Part shown: positions 15,781-58,908 of the stretch, in pieces
Layout of the letters: every line of letters starts with the position of its first letter
How positions within the stretch are numbered: the stretch's first letter is position 1
Virus record (IMG/VR): IMGVR_UViG_3300042868_004799
Span: 7,286-71,285 of that record
Strand: one strand, 5' to 3'
DNA length: 64,000 nucleotides
Origin: a virus
Made by a program: the position numbers and the translations under genes
The notes under the pieces: generated by a model
Database searches by the model: none
What the model was told of the DNA's origin: nothing
Seen by the model: the letters and a program-made list of their open reading frames with translations, nothing else

Positions 15781-15906
15781 TTTTGTACTCTTTCTTCTCT
15801 TCTTCGTTCTTAGCTAAGCCTAGTCAATACAGATCATTTGTCTATAGCAATTCTATCCTAGTCTTCTATGGTGTACTGGTCTGAAAAGCGCCGCTAGACA
15901 TAGATC

Positions 15907-30052: not shown

Positions 30053-31960
30053 TCAGTATTCGATCGCTGCTGCGGTTGCGCCACCTGTCGTGTCGCGGAG
30101 TGCTGCTGCAACACCGTTCACGTTGATGGTTGACGTAACTACGAGTGATTCAACACCAACCTTGGCAATACCTTCAAAGGTTTCAACGAACATCTTGTAA
30201 TCGTTGGTTCCTACGAGAGTAGAGTCACGGATGATACCGAGGTCCAATGTTCCACCGTCAAGGAACAAGAATGTTCCTTCAGCGAAGATGTACCACGCGA
30301 ACGTATCTGAATACTCATTCATTGCACCGGTGCTCTGAGCACTGAAGACGTTGAGGTCGGGCGAGAACGTGATGTTCACTCCACGAGCAGTCAAGTAGCC
30401 TTCGATTTCAGAATCGGCAACGTTGATTGAATTGTCACCAGGCATTGCCAGTGTAAGGTCTGCACGCATTGCGTCTTTGATCCATGCTGGAGCGATTACG
30501 CGCAACTGCATTGCTGGATCGAGACGATGACGGCTGCGGTATGCAGCGCTTGCGCGTCCGATCTGAACAAGGAAGTCACGAGCAACACCGATAAGGCTTG
30601 TTGACGAGACTGCTGTTGAGCCTGCTGTAAGCTTGCTAGCAAGGTACTGCTCGGCTTCACGAGCGTGCTGGATAAGAGCAAGTTCGTTATGACGAGCGAC
30701 AAGCTCAGGATAAGCGCGTGTCATCAAGTTACCAAACTGGAGTTGCAATGTAACAGCGTCGGTTGCGACGGTTGTTTCAGAGGCTGCAGTGATGGTAAGG
30801 CTTGACTTAACGTCTGTACCTGGGTTTGTGTCTGTTGCGTTTGTCCATACGCCAACTGCGTTGCCATAATCTGACAATACTGGTGGAACGATGTAACGGA
30901 TACCGCCACGGTCAGCCGCGAAGCGTGGAAGCGAGTCGCGCAATGGACGGTCGGTTGTGCCGAATCCAAAGATATCGTACTTAACTTCGAACGGAGTGCT
31001 GTGGCCACCAGATGCGACAAGTGCTTGCGGAGAAGCGATTGCCTTGATCTTAGCGACGTTTGACTCTGTGTCCTGGGTAAGAACGCGTGTGTCTGGGTAC
31101 TTGGTTGTGATTGACGCAACGATGTGCTGCTCGCCATCGCCACCCTTAACACGGCGTAGGCCATGAAGACGGGCGACCATTGCTTCTGCAATATCGTTTG
31201 AGTCGTTGATAACCGAGCCTGCTGTGTATCCAGGGATGTCGGCTCCAGCGGTGATAACCATTGGAGCTTCCTCGCGGCCCTGGACTGGGCGACGGTCGGC
31301 TGGAGCTTGGATTTCTACGTCCTGCTCCTCGTTGTGTGCGGCGGCGGTCACTGGTGCCTCCTGACCTTCCTGCTCCTGTGGAGCATTTGTGATTTCTTGT
31401 GTGCTTGCTTCTGCTTCAGGAGTTGCTTCGACAGCGGCGACTTCGGTCGCAACTGCGGCCTCTGTTACTTCTGCTTCTACTTCTACTGCAGCTTCTGCAA
31501 TTGTGTTGGTCGATAGTTCGGATGCCAATTCCACGTCAGTTGAGAAAAGAGTATTTTTCTTCTTCTTTTCTTCGTCTTCTTCTTCTTCTTCATGCATTCC
31601 CATCATTTCTTCTTCAGCTGGCACTTCTTCCTCTTGCGGGGTTTCTGTGTCTGCTGGAGCTTCTTCTGTTGGAGCTTCTTCTTCAGGAGTTTCGTTCATG
31701 CCGTCTGCTTCACCCTTGACACGCATTGCGGCTTCAGAAGCACGTGCGGTAAGCTCTTGTGAAAGAGCCTCACGTCGTGTTGCTTCATCACGCACTGTGT
31801 CAAGCATGTCAGCAAGAGCTGTCATGGCGTCAACTGTTTGTGGGGTTGGATCTTCACCCTCGACCGTTTCGAACTCGGACACGATTTGAGACTGAAGTTC
31901 GATGACTTGTTCATCGGTCAGTTCTGTAATTGTGTCGAGCATTTGCTTGATACGGTCCAC
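30053..31960 (-). CDS. Major capsid protein with long acidic N-terminal scaffold-like region
   Basis: Acidic coiled N-terminus, then ITAGADIPG, LVASGG, RPLRD.LP.F.A.RGGI, GTFL.LDGG.LDLGI.RDS.L..TNDY..F.E.FE; very strong GGAGGAGG RBS. Confidence 0.88.
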   Translation of the reverse strand: MDRIKQMLDTITELTDEQVIELQSQIVSEFETVEGEDPTPQTVDAMTALADMLDTVRDEATRREALSQELTARASEAAMRVKGEADGMNETPEEEAPTEEAPADTETPQEEEVPAEEEMMGMHEEEEEDEEKKKKNTLFSTDVELASELSTNTIAEAAVEVEAEVTEAAVATEVAAVEATPEAEASTQEITNAPQEQEGQEAPVTAAAHNEEQDVEIQAPADRRPVQGREEAPMVITAGADIPGYTAGSVINDSNDIAEAMVARLHGLRRVKGGDGEQHIVASITTKYPDTRVLTQDTESNVAKIKAIASPQALVASGGHSTPFEVKYDIFGFGTTDRPLRDSLPRFAADRGGIRYIVPPVLSDYGNAVGVWTNATDTNPGTDVKSSLTITAASETTVATDAVTLQLQFGNLMTRAYPELVARHNELALIQHAREAEQYLASKLTAGSTAVSSTSLIGVARDFLVQIGRASAAYRSRHRLDPAMQLRVIAPAWIKDAMRADLTLAMPGDNSINVADSEIEGYLTARGVNITFSPDLNVFSAQSTGAMNEYSDTFAWYIFAEGTFLFLDGGTLDLGIIRDSTLVGTNDYKMFVETFEGIAKVGVESLVVTSTINVNGVAAALRDTTGGATAAAIEY

Positions 31961-36765: not shown

Positions 36766-37529
36766 TTACTGGCACTCCTATTCTCATCAGCGTCGTCATT
36801 TATTGGTCCACCTGTTACCCAGGCGTCGCATGTTCTTGTCGATGCGCACTTGAAATCAAATGCTTCGCAATAACCAAGCTGCGCAGCATCAATCGCGTCC
36901 CATGCATCTTTTTGGCCTGATCCGCCTTGAGAAATGCCGCTAGCGATGCAGTCGCGCATCTTTGTCGTAACTACAAACATAGCACAGTTTCCGCACACTG
37001 ATTGTTTCGATTCTTCTGGAGTCACAGACCAAATCTCAGCTTTAGCAGCCCAGAATGAATGATTAGGATACTCAGGGTTAAGCGGGCCATAGCCAGCGGT
37101 GCGTATGGCCTTACGACGATTTGTAAGGTTAACTGAAATGCTTTGAGTTGCGGGAGGGCATACGTCAGTGCTGATAGCGTTACCTTGCGGCTCTTCAGCG
37201 GCAGCTGTGACAGGCTCTTCAACAGGCTGGCTGCTGATATCTTCAGACTTAACAAGTCCGCCTGCAGCTTGTTTGCTGTCGTACGTCGTAATAAACCCAA
37301 CAGGGACGTCTACTTGATACAACTGGTACTGATCTTCAAGCGCGTCAAAAAACCTTGAGTTGACCTGCTGCCATCCGCTGCTGTCGCGAACAAACGAAGC
37401 TCCTTTTTCCATGCTTGAAAAAATCAAGTACGGTATTTCGTCTGAAGACGCGTCTACTAGCGCGTAAAGCTCATCTGTGCCAGAAAGCTCTGATGGCCAC
37501 TGTGCTTTTGTAACGTCTTGATCTGTCAT
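36762..37529 (-). CDS. Head-module protein with Cys-rich putative metal/Fe-S domain
   Basis: CPPATQ...YGPLNP...CGNC..F...C...GYC..FDFKCA..RTCDAW..GGP. Confidence 0.7.
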   Translation of the reverse strand: MTDQDVTKAQWPSELSGTDELYALVDASSDEIPYLIFSSMEKGASFVRDSSGWQQVNSRFFDALEDQYQLYQVDVPVGFITTYDSKQAAGGLVKSEDISSQPVEEPVTAAAEEPQGNAISTDVCPPATQSISVNLTNRRKAIRTAGYGPLNPEYPNHSFWAAKAEIWSVTPEESKQSVCGNCAMFVVTTKMRDCIASGISQGGSGQKDAWDAIDAAQLGYCEAFDFKCASTRTCDAWVTGGPINDDADENRSASK

Positions 37530-40500
37530 ACGCTTTTTCCGCCTCGTATCTCATTCTGTTCTTGAGAACTTTTGCCAGTATAGTCCGAGGACTCGACTGG
37601 TCTTATTTTATATTGTATACCAACGCTTGAGAAAGTGCCTGTATCAGTTTTTGCATCAAACTCAAGGTCTTCACCGACAAAGTCGATAAAGAATCGTTTT
37701 CCACCATTGTCATCTATCGCTATAATCGCAAGCGAGTAGTCATCGGCAGATATTGGCAATATCACTCGACTTAGGCTATAAATAATGTAGACGCGACCTT
37801 TTCGCGGCCCAGACATAACCTCAAGTGCTGCCGGCTCCATGATGTAACTTCCAGACATTACAAAATACTCTAGGTCAGATATGTAACTAGAACCGCTAGA
37901 CTCTCCAGAAGAAGTCACAGGTGACTCGCTGAGATTATCCATGGTCCCGTCCCAGGTACGGGTGTGGATTTTCTTTAGCAGCTGACCAATCAAGACTCTT
38001 ATGGCCATCGGAAGATCGAGTGCCGTCATTTTTTTAAGTGCGGATAGTAAGCCGCCGTCTGGCAATTCCCCCGACAGGCCTTGCTCAATTAGCGCGTTAA
38101 GCTGCTCTTTGTATCTTTCTTCTAGTTCTTTTGATTCAGGCTGCTTAACGCCTACAGGAATCATCCATTGATCTTTTTCTTTAGCTACATCAATAAGTTC
38201 TTTAATACTGTCTGCTTTAGCTGGCTTCGGGACTACAATAGTTTGCTCGTACGGGTCGTACACCTGTGGCTCGGTGATGCGGTCGTGTATGTAGTAAAAT
38301 CCTGTAGGGTACCGAACAATAAGTCTGCTCATGTCTTCGTCTGCGACTACGGCTTTTGATCCTACTGGCGCCGGAAGGAACTTCATACCAGCAGAAAGCA
38401 GTGTCCCGGTGAGCTCGTGGAAGTCAACACCTGCATCGTCTGCAGTGTCGCTATTAGAAAGTTCTTTTATAGCGTCATCTAGGTCAGCGACTTCGTCAGG
38501 ATAGACTCCAATACCCGCGGACTGCTCGACCTGCCTGCGGTGCACGTTTCCGATTTCTATAACAAAATCTTCTATTGCTGTTTCTCCAATATTAGCTATT
38601 CCGCGATCTTTCAGCATCTTTATTAACGGTGCGCGGACCTCCATACCGACTGCTATGCGAGACGCGTCAGCAAGATCAAGTGTGTGCTTAAACAGTGTCT
38701 CGCTTGAGTTCACATTTATCGCGTCAAGTATGTCTCGGCCTTCAACACGTTTGCCGTAGTCGTCGTCATAGTTTGCGTACGCGCCTAGCTTTTTTAGAAG
38801 TTTTTTCGACTCAAACAGAATTTCGCCTGTAAAAATTCGTGTCGACGGCGTAGCGCCAGTGTAGACAAATTCATCCGCTGACGGGGTCGTAAACACGTAG
38901 TCCGCACTGCCATAACTAATATCTTGGGCCGACGACTGCCCTGATTCTTGATTTCCTTCAAATACTCTAGTAATAGTTGAGCGAAGTGCTGTACTTTCAA
39001 TAAAATCAGCTAAGTATTTGGTAGTGGCATCTATGACCGTTTGGCGAGGTAAGCCAGTTACAGAAGATGCTTGTTGTTCTTCCATGAGCGTAGCTCTGAC
39101 GTTGTAAAAGTTTATAACGTGCGTGAATGATGCGACGCCTGTTGTATCTGCCAGCGCTTCTCCTACAGCGTCTGGCATAACGTACGAAAGAACTCCAAGT
39201 CTGTCTGCTTCAACAGTGACGTCGTCGGCGGTGATCCCCCACTTGTCGGCAATTTGTTTGAGCAGCTCTGCTCTTTTACTGCTATCTCTTTCATACGTTG
39301 TCGCATCTGTCTGCTTGGCAAACAAGCTTAACATCTTATTTTCAACTAAGACTCGCAAGTCTTCTTTTGTGCTTGGCCGAGGATACCGCACGCCTACAGC
39401 CGTCATAGCGTCGATGATGTCTTGTTCAGTTGCACCGCGTGGAAGATCAATATGCACCATGCCGTCAAATGAATTGGCCCCAAGACCGAATTGGCCGTCG
39501 TCGTTTACGATTACGCTGATATTTACGTCGCTGTCTTTACTTGCAGTTGGCATCTCCATTTTGTACGTTTTTCCGGCCCATTTAATTGGCGATGACGAGA
39601 GCATTGGGTTTTGCATGTCAGGGTTGTACATCAGCTCATCGTCTATTACTACGTTGCCCTTATCGTCGATGCGGGCAGAAGGAACCTCAAGCGGGCCTTC
39701 TTCCCAACCAGCAAGTCCACTACTGGGGTCACGATTATCCTTAAAATCTTCAAGCGCCCAGTGCGTTAGCTTAAACCGAAGACGTACTCTGTTTTCTCCT
39801 GTCGCTTTGTCAATAATGCTATTGACTCTGACTTCGAGGTCTTCAATATCTTCACCGTCCGCAAGCGCTGAAAGCCCTACAACGTGGCCACGGTCTGGAG
39901 CTGACATCGTCTGGACCGCGGCCCTAAGTGATGGAATGCCTTCAACTATGGACGTGGAAAAGTCTATTTTTTCAGGAGCTTTTTCTATAGTAGTAGACTT
40001 TGCTACTGGCGGACTCCAAGGTTCATTTGGATCTATAGAATCTCTTGTCTGGTCAACGACTGCAACTCGCATAACGCGAATAGTTCCGTCAGCGTCCTCG
40101 ATTTTACTGATAACTCTGAATGTAGTACCTCTATCGAAAGTAACTTCGTGTTCATCAGCGTGGTCTGTGCCGCCGCCTAGATAGCCCGGCAGGTAAATAG
40201 CTCTTGTACCAGCGGGAGCTACAATCTCGAGAACAAGCTTCGGTGACTTCGTGCCCGGCACCCGATCTGCGTCGTGTGAAGACGCCCATTCTTCAGCTAT
40301 TGCCAGGTCGATTGTAGCAGATCCGTACGCGCTGTCTTGGAACAAATCGCCTACTTCATACGATCTCATCAACTCATCTGAATAGTCGCTGTGGATTCCT
40401 CTGTACAGGACCATGTCTTCTGGGATTGTAGGCGCTTTCTTAAATAGCATGTCCATGCTATAAATGTTTTCTATAATAAACTTAGCCTTTAGAGGCGATA

Positions 40501-43500
40501 TGACATCGTCTCCAGTTTCTTCTCTAGTGACTCTTATTTGATTACGAAGAAGTCCGTTAATAGTAAAGAAGTCGTCACCTTGGTATGCCCATATCCCGCT
40601 TGACGCACGCTCTTGTTCGTCTGTAACGTCTTCATTGATGAATGGGTCAACAGAAAACTTTAATTTACCGTAGTAGTCATCAAACAGCGCCTCGAGTTCA
40701 CGCCAGGTTTTAGGCGCCGGCATCACCTGCCATTGCGGATTGATGTTAGCAGCATCAACTTCTGATTCTTTTACTTTTTCGACGGGAGGTAGCTCAGGTT
40801 GAACTGCTATTGCTTCTACCTTGATCTTTTTTCTTCCGTCAGCCGCTGAGTCGTCTTTGCTGATCACTCTGAACTCAGTTCCGCGAGCCATTAAAAATTC
40901 GTCTTCTGGCATCTGGTCTGGGAACGCGACGCCTTCGCCGCCAAGAGCATCTGCTACATAAATTCCTTTTGTTCCAGGTGTGGCCACAATTTCAATTATG
41001 TAAAGATTATTGTTGGTGTTGTTTGGAAAACTTGACGCTCTGTTTTCAGAAGTAGTCGTAGATACATATGCAAGATCTCTATATGTATCTCCAACCTCAA
41101 GGCCATCGAAGAACTTAGATACGTCTTTCCCTCCGACTCCTCTATAGAATGTCGCAGGTATTCCAATTGGTTGCGCACCTTCGATTACGGCATCAATGCT
41201 GTCAATGTACGCTTTTGCTCGCGCTATTCCAGATTCGACAGGAAGATCGGCTTTAGCAAGATATTCTGCTGCTGCGGTTTCACCAGTACGAAGAAGCGTA
41301 TTGATGACTTCATACGCGCGTGTGTTCGCGTACGCGTCCAACGCTTCTGTTACTTCAGTCGCGTCAAGCTCTTCTGCTGCATCTTCTATTTCGCTTCCAG
41401 TGCTAAAGTCGATGCCTTCGCCCTGCTCTAAGATTGTAATTTTCCAGACTTGTTTTACACTTCCTTTGATTTGAGTTATTTCGTCAATTCTGTACTTAAT
41501 ACCTGCTGGAAGAAGAACTTCTTGTTCTGTACTTTGTGAAAGTTTTGCGCCTCGAACATTAGGCCCTAATGTAGTCACAAGTTGAATAGGCGCCCATTGC
41601 CCTACGCCGAGCGTATCCAATTCTCTAGGCGCGGTAGCGAACGACTGAAATGCGCGATCTGTGACAATGGATCCTTCTTCAAGATCTTCGGACCCATCCC
41701 AAGTACCAACGCCTCGATATAAAGTAAGCCCTTCTGGAAGCTTTGTCTCCATTAGGTAGCCTTGCATAGTCGGGTAGTGCTCTGATGCTGTTTTTTCTTC
41801 GTCTCTTAAGGATTGATTTATTGCGTCGGAGTACTTACCGGCGTAGGAATCCATTTGTATCCAAGAATATTCGTATTGTTTTTTCTTTGACGGTGGTTTA
41901 AGTACACCTGACAGCCAGTCGTATATGGCGGAGTACCATTCTGTAGTGCCTTCGACAAGTTTTTCTATATCCGCATCATCATCTGCATCACTATTGTTCT
42001 CTTTTGCATAGGCAAGAAAATCTTCAAAAGTTTCTGGAGTGTACAACGTAGTATCTGTCTCGTCAGCTTTTACAAGTTGCTGAATTTCAATTGATTTTTC
42101 TTCTGCTTCAGGAGATTCCGCTGCGCTACGCTGTTCGAGAACGATCTTCGTATATGTATGATCGGCGTCATACGGTTCACCGGTGTCTATGTTCCAACCT
42201 TTGCGCTTTTTTGTGACTTTTTCAACGCTGACAACTCTGTATCGTCCATTTTTAAGCAAAGCTTCATTTTCTGCCATTGCCGTAAAATCGCCAATTGCCA
42301 GACCTTCAGGGTCTGTAATAAACAATGCAACGTCGCCAATATTGCTAGGATCGCCGAAGCCTATAGCTGTAAACAGTCCGTCATCATCTGAAGTTCCACC
42401 GCCTTCGCCAAATTTGGCCCACGAACTTGGCCGCATTGATATTTCTTGCCCAACAGCGGTAAGAGCATGCAGTGGGTGTTCAGGGCTGTCGATGTCTACG
42501 TCTTCGAATGTAAGAGTTCTTACAAAAGTTCCGTCAAGTTTTCCAGCAAAAGACAACACATTCAAAAGTATTCCTGCTAAACTTCTGCTGTGCTCATTTT
42601 GAGTGCCATAGCCCACGTCTAATAAGCTAGGATCATTCATAATAGCCGCGTAGCTTCTCCAGAAGTTGTACAACGATTCGTGTATTTCCTGCACGTCCGT
42701 TAAGGATCCTGGACTTATCCCTGACAGATTTTCACTAGTGCGTTGTCCTCTGAATCTTTTGATTCTGGCTGCTATGCCTTCTTCGTTGTTTCTTGTCCCC
42801 GTATATGCAGCTCCACTAGAGTACGCAGCTATAGCTTGCGCAAACAAAACGCCAATCGCGTCTGCAAGTCTAAAGCGTGCGTCGCCGTCTTCATCGGTCT
42901 CAATTTCGACGCCTAGCAGAGTCCTGAGGCCACTTCCAGGTTTGTTGTAGGTCTCGAGAGGGTAGCTTATGTCGAACGTGCTATTTTGCGCAAACTCAGT
43001 TAAAAATTCTGCAAGATCCTTGTACCGCTTTTTTAGACTTGGTACAGTCTTGCCAGTTTTTGGAAAAGTGTACGTTTCTTCAAACTCTTTTTGCGGCAAT
43101 TCTTCAATGTATGTAGCCCAATTTTCATTGAATTTAGAACCGACAGTCTGGCTTCCACCTTCTCGCAGCAGTTCGACTAAAACTTCGTCAGGTGGAGTTC
43201 TATCAATTACAACAGCATCTGCTTCAGCGGGGTTTGACACCTCACTGCCTAGCTTGTTTACTGTTTCTGGAGAGTTGTCAACTTCAGGAACCGCCGGTGC
43301 TTTTGCTTTTTTGGTAAGCTTGGCTTTTATCAGCGTCATGCCATCGTCTCGTTGAGTCACCTCGACTATTGAGATTTCGGAATCTCTAGCAAGAAGTATT
43401 TCTTGCTGTCCGTCTATTCCCTCAACTTGCCAATTTTTATCTGCAAATTGGTCGTCTTCTGCTAAAGTGGCGTCGATCCCCGGTAAAAAATGAGGAATAC

Positions 43501-46500
43501 TTAAGAATTTTTCACCAGGTGGTATTTCAATTTCATAGACAACTTTCACATCTTCAGCGCCTAATCCATTGGCGACTTCGCCGTAAGTATAGTGCCTCTC
43601 AAGACGAGTAAAATCTTCTGCAACCAGCGGAGACAGTGACGTCGATAAATACCTTGGCGATTCAATAGTTTGCCCTACGCGCGGCGCCTTGTCTTTGCTA
43701 TATATTGTGCCCCGGTAGACTGTCACTGGAACGTCAAACTTTGGAGCTTGATCCATTATTTTGTCGATTTCTTCGACAAACTCTTGTATCCACTCCCTTT
43801 CTCCACCCTCAGGCTCCCACTCGCTGTCGCCTTCCTGCTCGGCCATTAGAAAGCCATTGATGTCCTCTGTGCCGTACGTTATGTAGTCTATAAGACCTTC
43901 AGACGGTAGGTTGCTAGATTTTTCTGTGAACCCAGCTAACTCATACGCTTTCGCTACTTGATCGAAGGTTACAGGCGACTCTGGCGCTGCTTCAGGAGCC
44001 TCGGTAGCCCCTTGCGGGGCTTCAGCTTTTGGGAGGTATGGTTCCCCTAGATAGTAGTTAAGTAAGATTTTTGCATCTTCAACATTAACTATTACTTCAG
44101 AGTCTAGTTTTAATGTCAGATACCTGACATTAGCCCCTTCGGCTTTCATCTCGTCGCTGAGAGCCTGTAGAAATGAGGGTGAAGTCGCGGAATCGTAGCC
44201 TTCATTTCCTGAAGATCTAATATCCTCATTAACTCTGTCTGCCGCTGCTGCTGCTTCAGCTTCTGTGACGCTACTAGTGCCGCCACCGTCATCGACCGGT
44301 TCGGGCGCTGGGGGTTCGACCCCACCGCCGCCTTCATCGTCTTCGCCGGTTTCATCTTTGCCAGCGTTTGGATTCAATGGGACCTTACTGGTAAGGCCTT
44401 CCTGCATTTTCTTATAGCCTTCGAGCTGCTCATCCAAGCGTGGTGGCGCTTTGTCCTTGCTCTTTGGATTGGCTTTTTCCTTGTCAGTGCGAGGATCTAC
44501 CCATGGAGCTTCGTCAGCTGTGATTGTTGTAAGTGTTCCTGGGCTACGAGGCATTCTTGCGACACCTGGACCCCAGTTACCCTTTGGAATTTTTTCAGGA
44601 TCGCGAGGATCAAGGTCAAAGCGGACTTTAACTGTAAGCCAGTCGTTCTTGTTGTATTCTTCAACAGTACCGGAGTAGCCGTTTTTGTCGCGAACGCGCA
44701 TTCCTGGTGTAAGGAACACGCCATCTTTGGAAACGCCTAGTGGGCGACCTTGATCGTCAACCTTGTCTGGTGGTGGAAGTTTTGGATTGACAGCGCGACC
44801 GTACATCGCCATGTCGATTTCTGACGCAATGTCACCAATCTGATCGCGAAGGACGTCTAAGTTGAGCGAGTCGTTGTTCTTCGAGCCAGGTACAAACGGC
44901 GGGATCAAACTTTCAAGATCAAGCAACTCATTTTGCGCTTGCTCAAGAGAAATCGATCCAGACTCGAGGCGAAGACGAATGTCAGCGACCTTGTCGCGAA
45001 TCGAGCGCGCAAGCGCCTTGTTGCTTTCCTTAAGCGTCTTCATTTCTGGGTCAGTGTCAACGAATGCTTGAAGCGCGTCAAACGCTGTAAGCATTCCTTC
45101 TGATGTTCCAGCAGGGGCAGCTTCGTCTGTCACTACTTCTGGTCCAGGGGCTGTTTCAGGCTCTTCTCCAGGTACGTCTGGAGTTGTTGACGGTGCCACT
45201 GGCGTTGGCGTTGGTTCGGTTTCTGGATCTGACGGAAGTTCAACAACCTCTGGCTCTGCAACTTGCTCTTCTTGCTCTGGTGCGGTAACACGACCAAACG
45301 TTTCTGGCAAGTTGTTTTGCCCAGTGATGACTGAATCTTCAGGATCACTATGGCGCTTGTTGCGAAGATCGCTAACGATTGAGTCAAGAAGTTCGCGTAC
45401 TTTTGGATTACGACCAATGAGGTCTGCCAAAGTCTTTTTAAGAGCTTCAATTGCCTTAGTTCCAACGCTACGACCGAAGTCATCAGCACCCTTGTCAGCA
45501 GCGTCTTGAATTGCGTAGAACACTTTGTCAAGTGCGCCATAGACACTGGTTTCATCTTTTGATGGACCTTCGTCAGACACAGCAGGCGGTGCTGGCGGCA
45601 CTTCTTCTCCGCCACCTTCTCCGCCAGCCTCTGGAGTTGGCGCTTCAGGAGTAGGCGTTTCTGTAGGCGCGTCTGGCTCAATGTTGGCAGCTGGCATTGG
45701 AATTGCTGAACTAGCAACATCGTCAGCGATAGTTTCCTCGGCGCTGGTTGCGACAGGGGCAAATGGCGACTCGTCTGCATCGTTTGTGAAGTCGTAAATC
45801 CAGCTAAGAGAGCCAGGGTCAAAAGCTAACTGAGCGCGAGTAGCTACAACGTAGGCAAGATGGATTTCTTCAACAGGAGGATAAATCATTTCTCCAGTTG
45901 TTTTGTCCTTGCGCGGGCCGCGGAAGTCGTTACTGGCGCGAACGTTGCCGAACTCGAGGCCTTTCATCTGGTGCGCAGTTGCGACTACGACATCGATTCC
46001 AGCCATTTCATCTGAAGCTTCTGCAGCTTCTGCAGCTTCTGCAGTTTTGCCGCCAGAAAGAAGATTCTTTAATTTTGTTAAAGCCTTGCGTGCTTCGGCA
46101 TCGTTTTTAGCTGGAAGTTTCCACTGCTTATTGGCAGCGTCCCATTTTGCGCCCGCTTTTTTGATTGTTTCTTTTGCCGCATATGTGCCATTGCCGCTGA
46201 TTGCCACTCCTGTTGGATCGACAGCAAACTGCAAGTCACTTGTAATATTTCCATACGCACCTGCAGACAGGTCATCTGGAAGATCGGAGGTTTCTTGCGG
46301 CCCACTCTTTATTTGCGCTTTCGCCTTGTCACCGAATACGCGAAGTTTTTTAATAACGTCGCGAAGACCTTGGACACCTTGCTCATCAACCATGTCGACA
46401 AGAATTGATGTTTTAACGCCGAGGTCACTGTCTTCGCCCTTGGCTGCTTCAGCTTCAACTTCGGCCCAGTCTTTGAATGGGCGCAAGTCGTTTGGCATGT

Positions 46501-49500
46501 TCGCAGGACGCTTTACGCCACTTGACATTCCACCGTTTTTCAGCCACTCGACAGAGTCGACGAAGTTCTTAATATCAGCCATGAAGTTTGCTGGTACGCC
46601 GACAACTTTGTCGTCGTCCATAAGACGAATCATGTCGATAAACGCGCCGGCGTTTGATCTTGCGATAATTGCATCGGGATTTTCCATTGTTCCTGGAGAA
46701 AGAACTTGACCTTCAGCGCCGCGGCCTAAACCACGATTAACATTTTTGTAGCCAAGTACCTTTTCTTTGAAAGCAAGGAACCTGTTTGCGAATCCGCCAA
46801 TTTCTGGACCGTATCGCCAAGACTCTGTCAGTGGCAATCTGTGCGGAGCATCAAATGTTTGCAATTGGTCCTTAGCGCCCATGAACTGGTAAATTGCCTG
46901 CTCAGGGTCACCAACAAGTACAGCTTGAACGTTTTGACTTCTTATCACGGTGCCAAGAACATCGTTTGTGTCTTGTGCCTCGTCAAGGAACACCAAGTCT
47001 ACAGGCGCATTGATTCCTGATGCTGTGTCAGAAAAATCTGGCTTGCTAAGCGACCAGATTTTTTTCATTTCACCAAATGAGAATGGAAGCTGGCCTTTTG
47101 GATTAAAGATGTCGTCGATCCATGCTTTTGCTGATGCCTGTAAATCAGGTGTTACTGCATCATCAGGGAAGTGCTCAAGAAGATGTACGTCAGAGAATGA
47201 CTCATCTGCACTTGTAAGGTAGCTGTAGATAGCCTTACGAAGAAGAGCTGCAACCTCATACGGCTTAAGTGTCTCATCGTCAAGAGTTATTGATGGCACA
47301 TTTAGATACTTTGCAATATCGACGTTGCTGTACATCGCAGTGTCTTTTTGCGCAAATTTCTTAAATAGTTCAGGACGCTGTGTCTTGACAAAAGAATACG
47401 CAACAGAGTCAGCAGTGCGGACTTCTACGTTTGCTGGCATTTTTCCACGAGCTTCTTCTGCTGCATTGCGGTTAAACGCCATGTACAAAATTCTCTTCTT
47501 TGGGAAGAGCTTCTGAATTACACGAGCGGCAAGATTCAGCGTCGTTGTCTTACCCGTACCAGCCTTAGCGAGAACTACTACGTCGTCGCCAGACAAGATA
47601 CCGCGAACAACGTTGCGCTGTTGCGCAGTTGGTTGGAACTTTTCTTTGCTGTAGAGTTCTGCTTCGTCTATGCCGTCAGGTAGCGGGATCAGCTCTTCAT
47701 CACGGTCGTCACTGCCGCGATCAGGAAGCGGGCTTCCGCTACTTCCGTCAATCGCACCTGAAGAAATTCCATCTGGGTCTACGAAGTCTGAAGCGTCAGG
47801 AATCGAGCGACTAATGATTTCATCAATCGTTGGAACGCTACAGCTGTCATCGTCGCCTGCGGCCGCAAGTAACGCAGCGGAGCTCACGATGTTTCCGCCA
47901 CCCTTACAGTTCCATGCAGCAGCGATAGCTTTCTTTGTCTCGTAGTCGAGAAGATCGGCTGTATACTTGTCAACCGCGCTATCAAAGTTTTGTTTCTTCG
48001 CGTCGTACTCTGCACCCTCAGCAGCAAGATCAGAAAGTGGCTTGCCTTGTTCGCTAATATGGTCAAGAAGTGCTGGAATAAGTCGAGCAACAGTATATGC
48101 GTCTGCATCAGCTGTGTGCCATCCGTTAGATTCGCCAGCTTCTACAACTGGAAGATTTGCGCGTTCTTCAGGAGTCATCCACTCGGGGAGCGGTGCCATT
48201 GCATCTTCAGATGTCGCTGGAGCTGCAATGTTAATTCCAAAGAAGTCTGCCAAAGCTCCGAGCGTGTGACGCTCTGGTCCATTAGGATCTGGCTTTACTT
48301 TTTGGCTACGCGATGGGATCAGTTGTTGAGCAAGTTTAAGCGTGTCAATGACACCGCCGTTCTGATATTCAATTCCAGCGCCTTCAAGCGCGCTATTGAA
48401 AACGCCCATATCGAATGGTGCGTTGTGAGCTGCAAAAACTGCGCCCGGTCCCGCCCACTCAACGAAGCTGCTGTGAGCACCTGCTTTTGGAATGCTGTCT
48501 TGAAGAGTCGCATCTGTGAGCGGGTTGCCATCTTCATCTTTAAGGTTTTCGCGAGCCCAGAGTCCAAGCGGTTCGCCTGGATTCATAAACATGTTGAAGT
48601 AGTCAACAGGCTTTCCGTCTCGTATACGGACTGCACCGATTGACACAGGCTGGTTTGTGCTGAAGTCACCCTTGTCACGATCTGGGAATCCAGTTGTTTC
48701 ATAGTCAAAGACAATGATGTCTTTGCCGCGAAGGCGTTCTTTGACATCTTCCCAAGACGTAGCTCCATCAAGCAGTGACGCAATTGGTCCAGTGAACGCC
48801 GGTGGCTTTGGAGCGTATGGTGCTTTAGGACGATGAAGCGCTGGCTGCGTTCCCATTTCTGGAACTTTTCCACCGCGAACAGCAGAGATTTCTGTGTTTT
48901 CGTTCCACTCTTTGCGCTGAAGTTCGTGTCCTGGGTAGTAACCCTCGACACTGACCTTGCCCTTAGGTGTCTCACTGTCACGGAAGATACGAGAAATTGT
49001 GAATGAATCGCCTGCTGTAATGTCTCCAGGTTGAAGGTCTTGCGCTGCAAATCCCATGCTTTGCGCAAGTGACGTTGGCTCGCCTAAGATGTCACTATCA
49101 GCAGCTTCTTTATCAAGACCTGTTTTTGCCAAGATGTAGTCGCGGCGACGCTTAAGTGTTTCCTTAAGGAATTCAGCTTCTTTTTTGTCAGTAATGACGC
49201 TATCGACGATTTCATCAATACGTCCTGGTGTGATGTTTAGCAGACGACGAGCGCTGTTTTTGAGCTGCTCATCCGTCATGCTTCCAAACACTTCAGCAGA
49301 CGCTGGGATTCTTGCAAGAAGCTTGTCACGCATGTTGTCAAACTCGAACGCATCATCTCCGAACCAGTCTTTTGGTCCACCAGTTGCGCGCCACATGAGC
49401 GCACCGCCTGGATCGAGACGAACGGCGTTGCCTTCGTTATCTGTTACGATGTTGTCGTAGTTAAGACCTGTGACGTCGTAGTTAGACAGCCACGCGTCTA

Positions 49501-52500
49501 TAGCGAATCCATCATGAAGTTGCGCGCGGTACGCAGTGCCTTTTTTCGACCTAAGCACTTCGTAAGCGTTTGTCTGCGCTCCCGGGATAAGTGGAGTAAT
49601 AATCTGAAGCTCATCGCCAATGTTGCCAAAGCCTACGACAGACGAGCGAATTCCAAATTCTTGGTAAAACGCAGATGCAAGAGCTTCGTTTTCACCGTTT
49701 GATCGTGAGCGTGCTTGCTTTGCGTAATACGTGCTGCCATCTGGTGCGCGATAGAAACCGCCAGGATTGCTTCCTTCAGACTCACCGTATCTTTCCCAAT
49801 CGGAAATGTCGCCATACGTGTCAACGCCGAGGAACCCGAGATCGTCTCGCATGTCGCTCATGCTTCTTGAAGTTTCTTGTGTCTGTTCGATTGTCACAAT
49901 AAAGTCGTCTGGACGGCCTGTGATCCTCGATGGTTGGCGCGAAATGTCTGTTACGCGATACGAACCGTACGCGAAATGCTCTTGTTCTCCAACGAACCAT
50001 GACAAAGATTCTGCAGAGATGGACGTTGCCTTGCCTGGAGCTACTCTGAAGATTACGTGATCAACCTCTGGGTCAGTAGGGCTGTACATCGCATCGCCAA
50101 ACGTTCCTGTCTGGAGTGACGCTGACGTAAATGAACGAGGGTCGATATCAAATGTTGAACCGACTGTTGTGTATGTCTGCATAAGCGGATCGTCAGAACG
50201 TACGCCAATTGATCTGTAGAGCGGAATGTCGTTCGGACGACCTGCTGCTTTCACAAGTCTGTAGAAAGCTGCGGCTGACGTCGTGCTCGTAAGATCATCT
50301 ACGCCAGTTGCTATTGCTTTCTTTCCAGCAACGAATTCTGGATAGCCACCGTAGTTACTTATAAGTTCGTCATAAGCATCTTTCGACTCGTCTGGAATTC
50401 CTATGGTGCGCTCAACAGCGCTAAGAAGCGCGCTTCTAAAGCTGTCAGAAAACTTAAGGTCGCGCTCTTCATGTGATGACCCACCGTCAAGCGACATCAT
50501 CATTCCCCAAAGTCCGCGGAATTCTTCACGCTCTTCTGGATCCGCACTAGTTGCTAGTGGAAGATACTGATCGAGAATCTCAGCAAGGTTGATGTCGTCG
50601 TAGCGATCGTCATTGTCTTGGCGGCGCATAAGATCGTTTGCAAGATCAATAAGGTTCTGGTTTGGCTCGACAAAGTTTTCAAGCTGAATTACGGCGTTCT
50701 GCGCAGGCGATGGATACGCAAGACGCTCGTTGAGTTTCTTCGCGAGCATGATGTCACGGTCACGCGGGGTTTCGTCAAGTACCTGGCCTGTGAAATCATC
50801 ACTCGGTGCGCTAGTCCCGTACTCGCTGTCAAACGCGTTCTTTAGCTCCATAACGCGTTCCATGTTCGTCATGTCACGATCTTCGTCGCCTAGCGCTCTG
50901 TCGTACAGCCCAGCAAGAATAATATCTGGGTTTACATCATTTTCTTTTAGTGCTGCAAGAATAGCTTCTGCTTTAATTGGCTCGTCACCTGACGCAAACT
51001 TAAGTGATCCGTATCCTGTTGCGTCATTGCCATCGCTAGGAAGAATAGCGTCTGACAGTGCTTTACCAAGCTCCGCAACGCCGAATCTAGTTGCAAGTTG
51101 TTTTGGATCATCTGTAAAGTCGATGCTTACTTCGTTCGTTCGTCCCTTTGGAACATACACACCAAAAATGTCAGGCTTGTACGCGCCGGGAGGAGTGTCA
51201 AATACCTCGTCGAACATCTCGACAGCAAACCCGTCTCCGCCATCTTCGGTTTCAATAGGCTCAAGCTCATCGAGGCCCTTAATGTCGTCTGGATTGTATT
51301 CTGAGGCAGTGGCAGCTTCGGCAGCAGCGCGCTGGCTTCTGAACTCATCGTCGAATTCTTTGTTAGTAAATCCGCCTCTAAAATAGTCATGATCATCGAG
51401 CAGTTGGTCTATGTATTCACCAGCTTGTGTTGGCATCGCATCAACGTCATCAGGAGTTACTTGGTTTTTATCGTTAGTAGCACCTAGCGCGATAATCGCA
51501 TACTTACCGTCAGGCTTGCGAATTAGGATCTCATCGCCATCAAAGGCAGTAAACAGCGCAACTGATCTTTTAGGAATGTCAGCGTAGGTTTCACCGCCAC
51601 TCAGTTCCTTCAACACATCGGCGACAGGTACGCCATCAAGAGCTTGGAATATCGCATCGAACTTGTCGTTAGGTGTTGCGTTCGGATCCTTAGAAGTTGC
51701 GAGTGCTTCTTTGTAGTCAAACTTGTCGCTAGGCAGCGCTCGTCTGAAACTGTTTTCGAAGTCACGATCGTCAAAGCCGCCTTCAGCGAACATAAGTCCT
51801 GCGTTAGAACCAATATTAAGCAGGTCACGTAGAACCTCTGCAGCTTGTATTGGCATTGAGTCAACATAGTCAGGAGTTACTTGGTTCTTTTCGTTAGTAG
51901 CACCTGTTTCAATAACCGCATATCTGCTGTCAGGTGTGCGGATATAGAACGTTTGGGATGTGCCGAATACTACTTCTGAGCCTTCAGGGATATCAGCGTA
52001 AGTTTCAGTGCCGCTGCCGTATTCGGAAAGATCTGGCAGTGCATCTTCATCAGTGACAGGCGTGCCCTTTGCTGTTCTAAATACAGCATCAAACTTCTCG
52101 TCCATAGACGCTTCTGGATCTCTAAGAGTCTTGACTGCTTCTTTGTAGTTAAACGTGTCGCTAGGCGCATTTTTGACGAAACGGTTTTCGAAGTCACGGT
52201 CGTCAAAGCCACCCTGAGCAAATGCAAGTCCTGAATCAGGGCCTATGAAAAGCAAGTCACGCAGCCACTCTGTAGCTTCTTTTGGTAGGTCGTCGACGTA
52301 GTCAGGAGTTACTTGGTTCTTTTCGTCGTAAGCACCAGTCTCAAGGAGAGCGTATCTGCCATCAGGTGTGCGGATATGGAATGTCTGTCCATACTCACCG
52401 AAAACTATTTCTGAGCCTTCAGGGATATCAGCGTAGGTTTGACCGTCAAGCTCTGGCAGTGCATCTTCATCAGTGACAGGCGTGCCCTTTGCTGTTCTAA

Positions 52501-55500
52501 ATACAGCATCAAACTTCTCGTCCATAGACGCTTCTGGATCTCTAAGAGTCTTGACTGCTTCTTTGTAGTTAAACGTGTCGCTAGGCGCATTTTTGACGAA
52601 ACGGTTTTCGAAGTCACGGTCGTCAAAGCCACCCTGAGCAAATGCAAGTCCTGAATCAGGGCCTATGAAAAGCAAGTCACGCAGCCACTCTGTAGCTTCT
52701 TTTGGTAGGTCGTCGACGTAGTCAGGAGTTACTTGGTTCTTTTCGTCGTAAGCACCAGTCTCAAGGAGAGCGTATCTGCCATCAGGTGTGCGGATATGGA
52801 ATGTCTGTCCATACTCACCGAAAACTATTTCTGAGCCTTCAGGGATATCAGCGTAGGTTTGACCGTCAAGCTCTGGCAGTGCATCTTCATCAGTGACAGG
52901 CGTGCCCTTTGCTGTTCTAAATACAGCATCAAACTTCTCGTCCATAGACGCTTCTGGATCTCTAAGAGTCTTGACTGCTTCTTTGTAGTCAAAGCCACCG
53001 TCGTCGTCATCGTCATCGTCACCCTTGTCTAGCTCAGATTTGATGTACGCATCGATTGCTGGATCGTCCATGTAGTCTTGCTCTGATGGCAAGTTACGAG
53101 TGCCTGCGTCGTCTGGCTCGCCGTCATCGCCAGGCATGAGAGTGCGTGAAGATCCGGGGAACGCATCGATTTTTTCGCCCTTGCTGATTTTCTTCAACTC
53201 AGGGATAATCTTGCCAACGGATTCTGCAGTTGCAATGCTGTCAATGAAGTCTGGGCCTACGTTGTCGTAGCGATAAATTCCGCCGCCCTTGCCGTCTTTA
53301 GAAGTAAACTGTACGAACAGCGAACCTTGTTCTGGCGAGTACGCCATGCGGCTAACTGCTGTGCTGCCTCGTGTGTCGATTTCTTGAAGACCTGTCGGCT
53401 TGGCTGCTGGAGCTGCTTGCTGTCTTGCTGGCCACAAAGCATCAACAACATCGTCGAGCTGTTCTTGCGGAAGGTCAATGATGTCGTCAAGCTTAGCTTG
53501 CTTGATTTTTTCGTCGACTGGTTTGCCGATCTTGTCGATGATAAAGTTTTTCTCTTTATCGCCGTCGGTATGTTCGATTCCGCGAAGGTTAACGTTGCCA
53601 TTCTTTGGATTTGTCCAGACGTCAAGTGGCGTAACTTCACGATCTTTTTCGTGGTACTCGAACTTAAGATCTTTTTTATCTGCGATTGCGGCGTCAATTG
53701 CAGCGCGACGCTCGCTTGGCACAATTGCGTCAAGGTCACTGACGTTCGATGCTTCTGGCGAAGCTGCGGGTGCAGCTTTTCCTGCGCGAATAGCTTGAAG
53801 CTCGGCGTCGTATTTTTTGATCTCTTCAGCAGGGTTAATGAATTTGCCTGTAGCCTCATTCTTCATGCTTCTGCCGAGCGGGACGGCGTACAGCTCGTCG
53901 AGCTTCATACGAACTAGAGCTTCGCGGTCGGACGCTCCGTCATATATGTTTTTATACGTATCGAACTTCTTAGGGTCTTTATCGCGAAGGTAGTCAAGCT
54001 CTGTTCCGCTAATAACTTGGCGCACGGCGTCAGCGGTAATATTTCCAGCGAGAAATTGTGCGACTGCGGCAGCAATATTTTTTGCTTGATCGGGGTCAAG
54101 ATTTCCACTGTTGACTTCAGCACCAATTACGCGAGCAACTGAATTCATGTCGCCTTTAAGATCGGCGGCATCTTGAAGCGCCCAGTACAAACGGTCAACT
54201 ACAGGGTCAGTGCCAGGTGTTACAACTGATGGTGGCGGTACGATGTTGTATTTTTCCCAGCCGATTTCGGTACGAGCTTCTGGAGGGAAATTGTCTTCTG
54301 GACCGTTGTACTTCCAAAATCCTTCTGATCCGCCAGTTTTTATAAAGTCCCAATTTTTTGGGTTCGCAAGGTCATTATGGAAACGTTCTTTTGTTTCGCT
54401 AGTTTGAGCATCAGTAGACTGCGGCGCATCGATAACGGCGCGCACGGCTTTATCATCGACTTGACCAGCAATGTACTGCGCCATTACTGCAGCAATGTTT
54501 TTTGCCTCGTCAGGCTCAATGTTGCCGTCATTGACTTCAGCGCCAAGTGCACGGGCGAATGAGCCCATGTTACCTTCGCCTGTCATGACATCGTCAACCG
54601 CGTTGTTTATACGGATAGCTGCCGGACGAGTCTTTTTGTTTTCGTTGAGTACGATGTCCCAAAACGGTTTCGGTCCTGGCGCAGGTCGGTCTTCAGGACG
54701 CACGTTCGGTCTAAACTCTGGTGCGGGCCTACCTGGTCTAGGGATAAACGTGTCTGAATCCGGGCCAACAACTCCTGGCGGTGGAGTCATGTAGTAGGCC
54801 GCGTAGTCTGCCATAGTGTCAGAGTCGTTGCGAGGGCCGATGTATTCCCAGCGTCCACCTGGGCCGCCTGGGTTTGCTTGCCACTTCCAGTTTTTTGGAT
54901 TGTTTATGTTGCGCTCGCGTCTTTCAGCGTCGCGCTCTTCTCTTGCCTGAGCTCTTGCTTCTTGCTCTGGCGTCTTTGGCTTTGGTGGCTTTGGTGGCTT
55001 TGGAAGAAAGCTGTCTGTGTCGATGTTGACCCAGTTGTCTTCTTTTTTAGGATAAGCGCGCAGCGGCTCGATCTTGTCGACCGTGAATGTACGATCACCG
55101 GCGTCAGTTTCGGAATAGCCAACAACGTTTGTCTTGCCATTTTTGGGATTGTCGTAAATTCTTTCTGGCTTGAAAATGCGTTCTTTTCCGCCGTAGCTAA
55201 TAACGACACTGTTGCCATCGTCGATTGCTTTTTGGAGTTGGGCTCGGGTGTCTACGTCATTTGTTCCGGAAATGCGAACAGGCTCTGTTGATGGTGCCGG
55301 TGCTTCACTTTCTGGAGAAATTTCTGCTTTTTTGACTGGCGCGACGGGCTTCTTTGCTGGGGCAGACATTTGACCAGCTATAAATGTGCGTGACTCTCCG
55401 TTTTCATCAAGCCCAACTGCATTATATGTGCCTGTTTTTTTATTTACATACCCATCTGTCGGCGTAATTTCACGGTCTTTTCCTTTATAAGAAAAACGGA

Positions 55501-57172: not shown

Positions 57173-58908
57173 TGCATTCCCTCTTTCTTCAGCGGAAGCA
57201 AATCCGCATCGTTGCTATTGTATAAATTTGTTGCAAGATTCTTTGCACGTTCAAATGGATTTTCGTCTTCTTTTACAGCGCGAATCCATGCTGCGCGGAA
57301 CGCTGGAATAGCCTCGTAGCCGAGTCCAGAATATTCAGCCATTGCGAAGACAGCGCTTTCAGATGTGTCGTACTCTTCTTCATTCTTGAGCGTAATGACT
57401 AGCTCTGAATCTGCTAAAGCGGAGGCTGTAATAGCCTCACTTGAGTTTGTTGCTTTAGGATGCTTTTCAGGAAGAAGATCGTTGTCTTGTTTGTAGTTCG
57501 AGTTTGTTGGGCGACCAGATGTAACTAGTCGAAGATACGCGTTGACACGAGCCATTGCCCATTGGTCACGAGTCATTCCAGGTCGATGTGAACTTGAGAA
57601 CGCTCCAGCACCTCGACGATAAACAGCTTTAAGCATTCCAAGAGTTACCTTACGGCCAGCAGTTGCTTTTTCATTGTGCTCGTCTACTTTGTTCTTAATT
57701 GCTTTTTCTACTTTGTCTGAGAAAACAATTTTCTTACCGCCAGCGGCTGACCCTGGCTTATTTTTGTCAGAGCCTTTGATTCGATCTTTTTTAGGTGCAG
57801 GCTTAGAGGCTGCAAGCTCCGCGTGCATTTCATCGGCGATAGACGTATCAATGGGAACGCAATTTGGCACCATGTTTCCGTTCTTGCCTTTTTTCATTCC
57901 TACTTGCTTGTATCCGTCCCAGCATGGGCTGCCGCCAGCGGCAGTAACTACGCCGTCAGGGATTAGCGCGAATCTGCAGTAACCGCCGGGCTCAACTTCA
58001 GTTGCAATGATTTTGCACGATGTTCCACCTTCATAGAGAATACAGTTAGCGCATTTAACTCCCTTGTCAGCAAGTTCGTTTTCATCAGCTGATTCATAGC
58101 CTGCCCAAACACCTGAGTCGTCGCTGTTAAACTTGCCGTGCTTTTTTGTAATCTCAATCAGCGCTTCTGCCAGTTCGCGTTCTTCAGCAATGACGACGGG
58201 CTCGTGTCCACTGCTGTACATTGGCGCTAAATCGTCAGAGTAAGCGCGGCAACCGCACATGCATGTCAGCGGGCAGTTGCACGGTCCGACAGAACATCCG
58301 CATGTCGGTGTGCAAACTGGGCAGGCTGCATCAGCACTTTCTACTGCTATGACAACTTCAACGCGAGCTGGAGACACGGCTCCTTGTGATTGAATTCCTG
58401 TGATTGCGCGAAGCTGCCATGCCCATTTTTTGTGCATGCTGTCTCGCTGAGCAAGAAAATCGACGATGCCTTGCTCATCTGCTGCAGTCGCACACTTAAA
58501 CGCAGTGTTAATTTGCGCAAGCATGTCTTCATTGGCTTTAAGAAGTGCCTTGCTCATTGACATTGGATCGCTGTTGACAATGTCTCCGTCGGCAACTACT
58601 GTCATTGAAAGGAAAAGTGCCAGCGACGCGGGCGCATCGTAGCCAAGAGTAAGAATACTTTCCGCATTGACGTCAATCGATTCGTAGACATCAGTTGCAA
58701 TGTCACGAAAGAGATCGTGGAACTCGCGAAAGTCTTGACCTTTTACGTTCCAATGAAAGCCATGTGCTTTTAAGTAAAACGTAAATGCGCTGCTAAGCAT
58801 TACGCTAAGGCAGGCAGCAAGATCGTCTTTGCTTCCTTGCACCATTTGAACTGGCACTTGCATTTCTGTATTCCTTTGGTGAATGATGTTGTTTTCGATG
58901 TTTTCCAT
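57169..58908 (-). CDS. dps: Dps/ferritin-like domain fused to a metallothionein-like Cys cluster, a HiPIP-like domain and phage head-associated domains
   Basis: KAHGFHWNVKG.DF..FH.LF...ID..AE and HKKWAWQLR (Dps); CPVCTPTCGCSVGPCNCPLTCMCGC; CANC..Y....C...VEPGGYC; CWDGYKQVGMK..VPNCVP; VYRRG.GAF..SHRPG...QWA.ARVN. Confidence 0.85.
   Translation of the reverse strand: MENIENNIIHQRNTEMQVPVQMVQGSKDDLAACLSVMLSSAFTFYLKAHGFHWNVKGQDFREFHDLFRDIATDVYESIDVNAESILTLGYDAPASLALFLSMTVVADGDIVNSDPMSMSKALLKANEDMLAQINTAFKCATAADEQGIVDFLAQRDSMHKKWAWQLRAITGIQSQGAVSPARVEVVIAVESADAACPVCTPTCGCSVGPCNCPLTCMCGCRAYSDDLAPMYSSGHEPVVIAEERELAEALIEITKKHGKFNSDDSGVWAGYESADENELADKGVKCANCILYEGGTSCKIIATEVEPGGYCRFALIPDGVVTAAGGSPCWDGYKQVGMKKGKNGNMVPNCVPIDTSIADEMHAELAASKPAPKKDRIKGSDKNKPGSAAGGKKIVFSDKVEKAIKNKVDEHNEKATAGRKVTLGMLKAVYRRGAGAFSSSHRPGMTRDQWAMARVNAYLRLVTSGRPTNSNYKQDNDLLPEKHPKATNSSEAITASALADSELVITLKNEEEYDTSESAVFAMAEYSGLGYEAIPAFRAAWIRAVKEDENPFERAKNLATNLYNSNDADLLPLKKEGMQ

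Follow-up and report, generated by a model that had tools for sequence, protein, structure and literature searches.

A giant protein with diverged R-S-E ADP-ribosyltransferase domains in the head-gene block of a siphovirus-like phage: a candidate polyvalent effector

Why should a virus carry four or more different ADP-ribosyltransferase (ART) domains in a single gene, and how would they reach their targets? The question is raised by a 64,000-nucleotide stretch of viral DNA (the window; positions 7,286 to 71,285 of IMG/VR record IMGVR_UViG_3300042868_004799), in which every ART unit, all on the minus strand, lies in one unbroken frame of 19.6 kb encoding a giant protein (P0001, roughly 720 kDa by estimate). 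An earlier note on this DNA had described a tandem battery of VIP2-like units. The decisive context, absent from that note, is that they belong to a single protein of 6,548 amino acids in the head-morphogenesis block, a position that supplies a likely delivery route, injection with the DNA. Our preferred reading, to which we give a probability of about 0.6, is that the four main units (A1 to A4) are domains of one polyvalent, head-packaged and injected effector of a siphovirus-like actinophage, and that they modify different host targets.

ART domains of the giant protein

A total of four matches to PF03496 (ADPrib_exo_Tox) were found by Pfam in the last third of P0001 (E 4.5e-38 for the whole protein). 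When the complete record (71,285 bases) was searched in six frames, the family appeared at the same four places, in an open frame of 6,562 codons, and nowhere beyond A1-A4. When each unit was scanned by itself, the scores ranged from 32.6 to 48.1 bits (gathering cut-off 23.4 bits), and all the motifs that the earlier note had listed for its four units were in place at the coordinates it gave (Table 1). The catalytic residues are R4487, S4510 and Q4589-Q-E4591 in A1, the sole QxE unit; R5153, S5177 and E5216-Q-E5218 in A2; R5344, S5371 and E5423-D-E5425 in A3; and R5591, S5618 and E5674-H-E5676 in A4.

Alignment of A1-A4 with three ARTs of a relative revealed 11 invariant columns, which include the Y..N..L helix, Y-R-G, the first serine of S-x-S/T and the catalytic glutamate; Y-R-G, the serine and the final glutamate are invariant in all seven domains. 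A profile of these seven sequences found the solved structure of VIP2 as its best match in the PDB (E 6.9e-15, about 165 residues aligned), with R, STS and ExE in register, followed by Vis, Certhrax, CdtA (4.6e-10), C3 and others, 53 sequences in all at E <= 1. Single-sequence phmmer searches of the PDB with A1, A2, A3 and A4 each gave no match at E <= 0.1. In PHROGs, families named 'Alt-like RNA polymerase ADP-ribosyltransferase' were matched (phrog_802, 2.9e-16, by A4; phrog_26651, 5.4e-6), the units concerned being A3/A4 and A1. The PF03496 scores, the invariant columns and the profile match to VIP2 bear out, at a level well above chance, the earlier description of diverged VIP2-like R-S-E ARTs with different catalytic loops; the ADP-ribosylating turn-turn (ARTT) loops of A1-A4 in fact differ at every variable position. 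On these sequence grounds A1-A4 are predicted to be catalytically competent, NAD+-dependent ADP-ribosyltransferases.

Two further units lie outside the reach of PF03496; neither gave a Pfam match at E <= 1. A0, which the earlier note had placed at about 49950-50250 as an additional 'EQE' unit, belongs to the conserved backbone of the protein, and six relatives at 41-55% identity keep its motifs LYR, RSFT and ExE unchanged. An AlphaFold2 model of A0, built from the alignment of the six relatives, has a predicted local distance difference test (pLDDT) value of 64 overall and of 70-88 in the beta core. Comparison of the model with the PDB by Foldseek gave Vis first (E 7.3e-6, template modelling score 0.40-0.44), then CDTa, VahC, Ia, C3larvin, VIP2 and C3. 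Almost all matches are R-S-E ARTs, at probability 1.00 and template modelling scores of 0.35-0.46; the exception is anthrax lethal factor, which we take to be similar to the ART fold. Alignment of the ART profile to A0 by hhalign covered the R..S stretch only (E 0.069) and is weak alone. Because the top PDB matches of the model are R-S-E ARTs, we accept A0 as a predicted fifth ART fold, in agreement with the earlier proposal. A0 is also found in the Actinomycetia phage DSL-LC01.

The second unit is the 'ENE' module, with core residues R4885, S4916-S4917 and E4968-N-E4970. The earlier note had called the unit at 42225-42530 degenerate, and at the level of motifs this is contradicted by two paralogous copies, which at about 35% identity agree in the R (FVRTLTF), in RPSSW and in ExE with the NGRYRV.SVE.V that follows it. 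The module is present in all five giants described below, three of which have two copies. In the ESM Atlas, ART clusters ranked first for ENE (0.96, and 0.95 for one made up 100% of PF03496), with a low recognition score (1940) and a shared-feature count just under the guide value. The AlphaFold2 model was unusable (pLDDT 37; five sequences, effectively two groups), and the hhalign match to the ART profile covered the ExE strands only (E 0.033), unconvincing alone. ENE is probably a sixth ART, as yet unproven.

Cassette types in related giants and in metagenomes

P0001 consists of a backbone (N-terminal domain, WYL/KTSC-like modules, A0, a HipA-like kinase fold, a DnaQ-type exonuclease, a UvrD helicase and a C-terminal domain) and of a variable payload between the helicase and the C-terminal domain, where the R-S-E ART cassettes sit on Pro/Glu/Ala-rich linkers. 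A search for relatives limited to proteins of 3,601-11,459 amino acids revealed five giants, the window's own included, of 4,782-7,986 amino acids. The backbone is common to them (N-terminal part, KTSC, A0, kinase-like domain, exonuclease, helicase and C-terminal part), and the homology of P0001 to its relatives begins at residue 4. The database entry for the protein itself (P0002) has 6,531 amino acids and 2 contigs.

With a custom hidden Markov model, four ARTs were counted in the window's giant, five in P0003 (7,986 amino acids) and three each in P0004, P0005 and P0006. These 18 domains represent seven types; members of a type share 69-99% identity, and members of different types 17-40%. 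All 18 retain R, S and the catalytic E, and both the middle residue of ExE and the choice between Q and E are type-specific. Retention of the catalytic residues together with high identity within types argues for a maintained, type-specific function. The order of cassettes is I-ENE-II-III-IV in the window, III-V-IV-I-ENE-VI in P0003, VII-ENE-III-IV in P0004 and V-IV-ENE-VI in P0005 and P0006. Type I has a copy in P0003 that is 95% identical to A1, and copies of A3 (type III) occur in P0004 (93%) and P0003 (75%). Type IV occurs in all five giants at 69-96% identity to A4, and type II (A2) is present only in the window's giant.

Relatives have in their payload a further kinase-like domain and a further ENE module, as well as two NUDIX domains. 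The NUDIX pair (PF00293, 4.6e-23; at about 15600-16000 in relative L006, and in P0003, P0005 and P0006) is missing from the window's protein. The kinase-like domain that follows A0 also follows the type VI ART in relatives. P0005 has an insertion with a 'DGHHR' stretch, which is presumably ParB-like, although Pfam reported no such match at E <= 0.01.

Are the cassettes products of duplication in place? Pairwise identity among A1-A4 is 24-35%, and in a FastTree analysis of 440 domains (at least 130 match columns each; 188 columns, midpoint root) from 153 top proteins they do not form one clade, their common ancestor being the root of the whole sample; support at the deep nodes is weak, and multi-domain proteins are over-represented in the sample. 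Recent tandem duplication in situ was rejected on these two grounds. One group holds types IV, VI and VII (support 0.77-0.81). Types I and V have their sister domains in P0059, another giant (0.999 and 0.992), and type II has its own in P0143 (0.725); BLAST neighbours are consistent with these groupings. The 'tandem battery' of the earlier note is not an array that was duplicated in place. The tree that the note had suggested for separating duplication from capture points to old, separate lineages, with type III left unplaced (0.46). Since identity is low and a single clade is lacking, the battery appears from sequence to be an assembly of old lineages, some of them related within the phage group.

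Proteins with several R-S-E ARTs are common in metagenomes. Among 1.84 billion representative proteins, 20,295 matched the ART profile at E <= 0.001, and the best 150 plus the giants (153 proteins, mostly of unassigned origin) were examined; ranking by summed score favours multi-domain proteins. Near-full ART domains number at least two in 143 of the 153, at least three in 102, at least four in 55 and at least five in 31, with a maximum of nine. Counts of 'intact' domains are lower bounds, as a shifted serine column sets some proteins to zero. QxE and ExE are mixed in several multi-ART proteins, and 29 of the 153 proteins share the kinase-like domain that adjoins A0 in P0001. A Pfam scan of 40 other multi-ART proteins revealed up to nine PF03496 stretches each and Phage_Mu_F at the start of four. 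GNAT, 2H and DUF3626 were found in one protein each and HipA_C, HipA_2 and APH together in one; no secretion-system marker was found in the 40 at the thresholds used. P0007 and P0008, with nine ARTs each, have no relative in IMG/VR.

Gene neighbourhood, delivery and alternative explanations

PHROG matches revealed a siphovirus-type layout on one strand, in which the portal gene is followed by a ferritin-like/DUF5824 gene, the giant gene, open reading frames (ORFs) of 255 and 1,559 amino acids and the major capsid protein gene. A head-tail adaptor, the major tail protein, the tape measure and tail proteins come next, and then a block of replication and nucleotide-metabolism genes; the replication genes are set apart, at 121-10498. 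The major capsid protein shares 79% identity with its counterpart in DSL-LC01, a phage assembled from a lake metagenome and predicted to infect Actinomycetia (PMC10611076). The great majority of the more distant matches of the capsid protein are from actinophages (867 records: Mycobacterium 495, Gordonia 198, Microbacterium 122). In the slot of the giant gene DSL-LC01 has a protein of 3,289 amino acids that is related to the giant in the N- and C-terminal regions and in the A0-plus-kinase block.

Megablast of the giant gene against 50,697 phage records gave no match. With the 1,301-amino acid ART region as query, tblastn matched a single uncultured Caudoviricetes record, annotated 'minor capsid component', at 33% identity and 9% query coverage. 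A search of bacterial genomes (one per species) revealed no copy of the giant gene; matches were limited to its kinase-like part, with 136 stretches in many genomes. Of the 79 loci that were kept, 13 have an R-S-E ART on the same strand at a distance of no more than 10 kb.

The place of the giant between the portal and capsid genes, the synteny with DSL-LC01, MuF in four of the 40 multi-ART proteins and the precedent of T4 Alt support delivery by the virion. In the proposed course of events, the giant would be made late with the head proteins, be packaged into the capsid and reach the host cell together with the DNA, perhaps cleaved between its domains. As soon as infection begins, the ARTs would draw on host NAD+ to mono-ADP-ribosylate a number of different macromolecules of the host. 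The ExE units may act on arginine side chains and the single QxE unit on an asparagine-like or nucleobase acceptor, and the outcome could be host takeover or the disabling of defences. The earlier suggestion of several distinct host targets is plausible in the light of the sequences; it is favoured because the ARTT loops differ, the domains are old paralogues (24-35% identity) and the types are kept at 69-99% across phages.

Several observations weigh against this reading. Packaging and injection are predictions, and the targets, presumed distinct, may overlap. The N- and C-terminal domains of P0001 have no match in Pfam (E <= 1) or PHROGs, and residues 1-300 have none in the ESM Atlas. MuF (PF04233 included), portal-binding and capsid-targeting domains all went undetected by Pfam in the giant protein and in the 71-kb record. 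The hub domains of polyvalent proteins (MPTase, ArdC-N, SNF2, N6A methylase and DdrB-ParB) were not reported for the whole of P0001 by Pfam at E <= 0.01, and Pfam may not model all such domains. The third ARTT-loop position, described as aromatic in a review, is non-aromatic in A1-A4 (I, Q, Q and H), so substrate recognition may differ from the textbook cases. The record is estimated to be about 44% complete, and we know of no cultured relative of this phage lineage. DSL-LC01, the nearest named relative, lacks the PF03496 array, which is therefore accessory and not essential.

Could the types all serve one end? On this account, which we consider unlikely, all would aim at the same host function (such as RNA polymerase or one defence hub), each fitting a different host allele or escaping a different inhibitor or ADP-ribosylhydrolase (ARH), so that the array would be bet-hedging and not multi-targeting. 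The payload does vary among close relatives while the backbone is kept, and type IV is universal while others come and go, a turnover typical of arms-race loci; the best-matching PHROG names, which are annotation labels only, are all RNA polymerase ADP-ribosylases. However, the types are very old paralogues that are not one clade among the 440 sampled domains, they are conserved across phages and do not diversify fast, and the contrast of one QxE with ExE in the rest is of a kind that changes acceptor chemistry in solved cases. The array might also act on NAD+ itself, as the earlier note had offered in proposing that NAD+ is drained, a proposal without specific support. The domains would then mainly be NAD+ glycohydrolases, or would intercept NAD-derived immune signals, and thereby lower NAD+ or blunt NAD-dependent defence. 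The two NUDIX domains in the relatives' payload do link the region to ADP-ribose/NAD chemistry, and the R-S-E and H-Y-[EDQ] clades include NADases (PMC9503650). This is nevertheless improbable: a few injected molecules would be ill-suited to bulk NAD+ depletion, the ARTT-type [Q/E]xE motifs are complete, the nearest solved relatives (VIP2, Vis, Certhrax and CdtA) are protein-modifying transferases, and the incomplete record revealed neither a Macro nor an ARH partner.

Delivery itself may be questioned. The giant might act late in the producing cell, or be an internal head or scaffold component, its ARTs modifying phage or host proteins during assembly or acting on neighbouring cells after lysis. 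Such a role agrees with the failure to detect MuF or another known packaging domain, and the helicase and exonuclease could serve cytoplasmic replication or recombination. We give it little credence, as the gene lies inside the head-morphogenesis block, in the slot of MuF-type minor capsid proteins in actinophages, MuF does occur in other multi-ART proteins and the replication genes are kept apart. Returning to the injected, multi-target effector, a bolder form of it, possible but doubtful, sees in the payload a combinatorial store of effectors, in which seven or more long-lived R-S-E types, the cryptic ART-like ENE family, HipA-like kinases and NUDIX domains are shuffled among related actinophages at the conserved Pro/Glu/Ala linkers, each type hitting a different host hub or defence protein. 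ARTs and kinases are combined again in many unannotated multi-ART proteins, with as many as nine ARTs in a chain. Together they would represent a large undescribed R-S-E branch of polyvalent effectors, a branch said in the text of the founding paper not to exist (PMC5512222). The pairs of ART and following kinase (A0 and VI) might be two-step modifiers of one target.

The coordinates of the main features are collected in Table 1. The kinase-like domain has no Pfam match of its own. Other parts of the backbone are repetitive. A 420-bp tandem repeat at 51704-52993 (-) (residues about 1394-1823; 3.0 copies, 90% match) encodes units of about 140 amino acids with the pattern 'F[ND]YKEA..DPxA..DKFDA.F' and is followed by a fourth, more diverged unit; the relatives have about 4, 3, 2, 2 and 0 such units, and the unit matches no family. 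WYL-like modules of about 70 amino acids ('..F.Y.GKDR...P......N.K.G..N..G') are repeated at 53200-55300 (-), residues about 560-705 and 1130-1215, with a borderline Pfam WYL match (22.1 bits, cut-off 21.8). One KTSC domain (residues 1270-1321) is under the cut-off in P0001 and over it in L006.

Among the neighbouring genes, that between portal and giant (57169-58908, -) encodes a ferritin-like domain (PF00210, 3e-14) with DUF5824, odd in a head-gene block; DUF3626 and DUF5824 proteins occupy its slot in DSL-LC01. The 1,559-amino acid ORF before the capsid gene (32086-36765, -) has no Pfam family and is protease/scaffold-like, with PHROG matches named 'portal protein' (phrog_859) and 'head maturation protease' (phrog_18402); the corresponding region of DSL-LC01 consists of three ORFs annotated as protease. 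A dCMP deaminase, a thymidylate synthase and a thymidylate-kinase-like gene stand in a row at 7975-10498 (-), an ordinary phage nucleotide-metabolism block.

Table 1. Positions of the ART units, the other domains of P0001 and the flanking head genes in the window
Feature	Positions	Strand	Details
ART A1 (type I)	43316..43969	-	residues 4402-4619; PF03496 35.9 bits, E 6.2e-9; VYRGT, YLSTSL, GQQE
ART A2 (type II)	41429..41902	-	residues 5091-5248; PF03496 32.6 bits, E 6.3e-8; LYRGV, FQSFAT, TEQE
ART A3 (type III)	40808..41401	-	residues 5258-5455; PF03496 48.1 bits, E 1.1e-12; FYRGV, YVSTTT, PEDE
ART A4 (type IV)	40055..40642	-	residues 5511-5706; PF03496 42.5 bits, E 6e-11; LYRGI, YGSATI, DEHE
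Predicted ART A0 ('EQE')	49913..50305	-	residues ~2290-2420; R2320 (LYRSIG), S2347 (RSFT), E2396-Q-E2398; in conserved backbone
'ENE' module	42143..43315	-	residues 4620-5010 (~390 amino acids); helical N-terminal part and ART-like core at ~42173-42595
Giant ORF (P0001)	37526..57172	-	6,548 amino acids; GTG start overlapping the stop of the upstream gene
HipA-like kinase-fold domain	49073..49855	-	residues ~2440-2700, directly after A0; phmmer match to stretches of P0025 that Pfam names HipA_C/HipA_2/APH
DnaQ/RNase_T-type 3'-5' exonuclease domain	48248..48715	-	residues ~2820-2975; PF00929, E 3.7e-8; phrog_192
UvrD/REP superfamily-1 helicase	45830..47626	-	residues ~3183-3781; PF00580 7.6e-17, AAA_19, UvrD_C; phrog_1967 7.1e-70
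Portal protein gene	58908-60665	-	phrog_776, 1.5e-105; two genes upstream of the giant
Major capsid protein gene	30053..31960	-	phrog_777, 7.7e-85; three genes downstream of the giant

Comparison with known systems

The binary toxins (VIP2, iota Ia, C2I and CDTa) are the nearest solved structures by profile and have two ART folds in tandem. Their N-terminal ART copy is an inactive adaptor, and they require a separate pore-forming B component. In contrast, every copy in the giant keeps R-S-E, its likely targets are bacterial and it comes without a B component; a PHROG scan of the neighbouring genes matched no binding component.

Among phage systems, T4 Alt is packaged in the head and injected, and modifies RNA polymerase and other host proteins (PMC5512222, PMC9503650). 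Like the units studied here it is a phage R-S-E ART, made late; 'Alt-like' PHROGs match the giant's ARTs, and Alt is the model for delivery with the DNA. Unlike the giant, with five to six ART folds in a siphovirus-like phage, it is a single-domain myovirus protein encoded near baseplate genes. According to a 2022 survey (PMC9503650), only about 3% of siphoviruses encode any ART, and MuF fusions of Alt/VIP2 ARTs are reported. The MuF-VIP2 fusions of Microbacterium phages in clusters EH and EJ, predicted virion components (Jacobs-Sera et al. 2020, PMC7302621), resemble the giant as VIP2-like ARTs in an actinophage head-gene block. They differ in having one ART and a recognisable MuF, whereas the giant has several ART types, no detectable MuF and many more enzymes. 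In size, the giant recalls the genes of more than 4,400 amino acids in Burro and in Microbacterium phages of cluster EK, the products of which are believed to be processed and to associate with the virion (PMC7302621). These too are huge single genes amid actinophage structural genes, with few informative domains; the giant family is bigger and rich in recognisable enzymes. In 2020 the EK and Burro genes were described as the largest among actinobacteriophages, and giants of 6,548-7,986 amino acids exceed them.

The closest concept is that of the polyvalent proteins of phages and conjugative elements, which carry 2-15 functionally distinct effector domains per polypeptide and are predicted to be packaged and injected (Iyer et al. 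2017, PMC5512222). ART is their commonest protein-modifying domain, with up to 12 copies in one prophage protein. The giant likewise has many effectors in a huge polypeptide beside virion genes of a phage of presumed portal-terminase type, with kinase, helicase and nuclease domains and mosaic orthologues. Its domains (four ARTs with one or two more, kinase-like fold, RNase_T, UvrD, WYL and KTSC) are within the range for such proteins, and its setting is between the portal and protease/capsid genes. The differences lie in the ARTs, which belong to the H-Y-D 'Tox-ART-HYD2' clade in polyvalent proteins (PMC5512222) and to R-S-E in the giant, and in the linkage of polyvalent proteins through hub domains, of which MPTase, ArdC-N, SNF2, N6A methylase and MuF went undetected in the giant. 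No description of multi-copy R-S-E arrays in one phage polypeptide was found in the text of these papers; figures and supplements (PMC5512222, PMC9503650) may list such arrays.

On the preferred reading, the polyvalent-protein concept is extended to the R-S-E (Alt/VIP2) clade, and the locus points to a large metagenome pool of multi-ART proteins. Five to six naturally diverged ARTs in one vehicle, with other combinations of the seven types in relatives, form a comparative set for relating ARTT-loop variation to target choice. Injected ARTs are regarded as the opening move of a phage against its host, and to our knowledge only T4 Alt has been studied in depth. The giant is probably a known strategy, the virion-delivered effector, in a form not described before: a giant modular R-S-E polyvalent protein.

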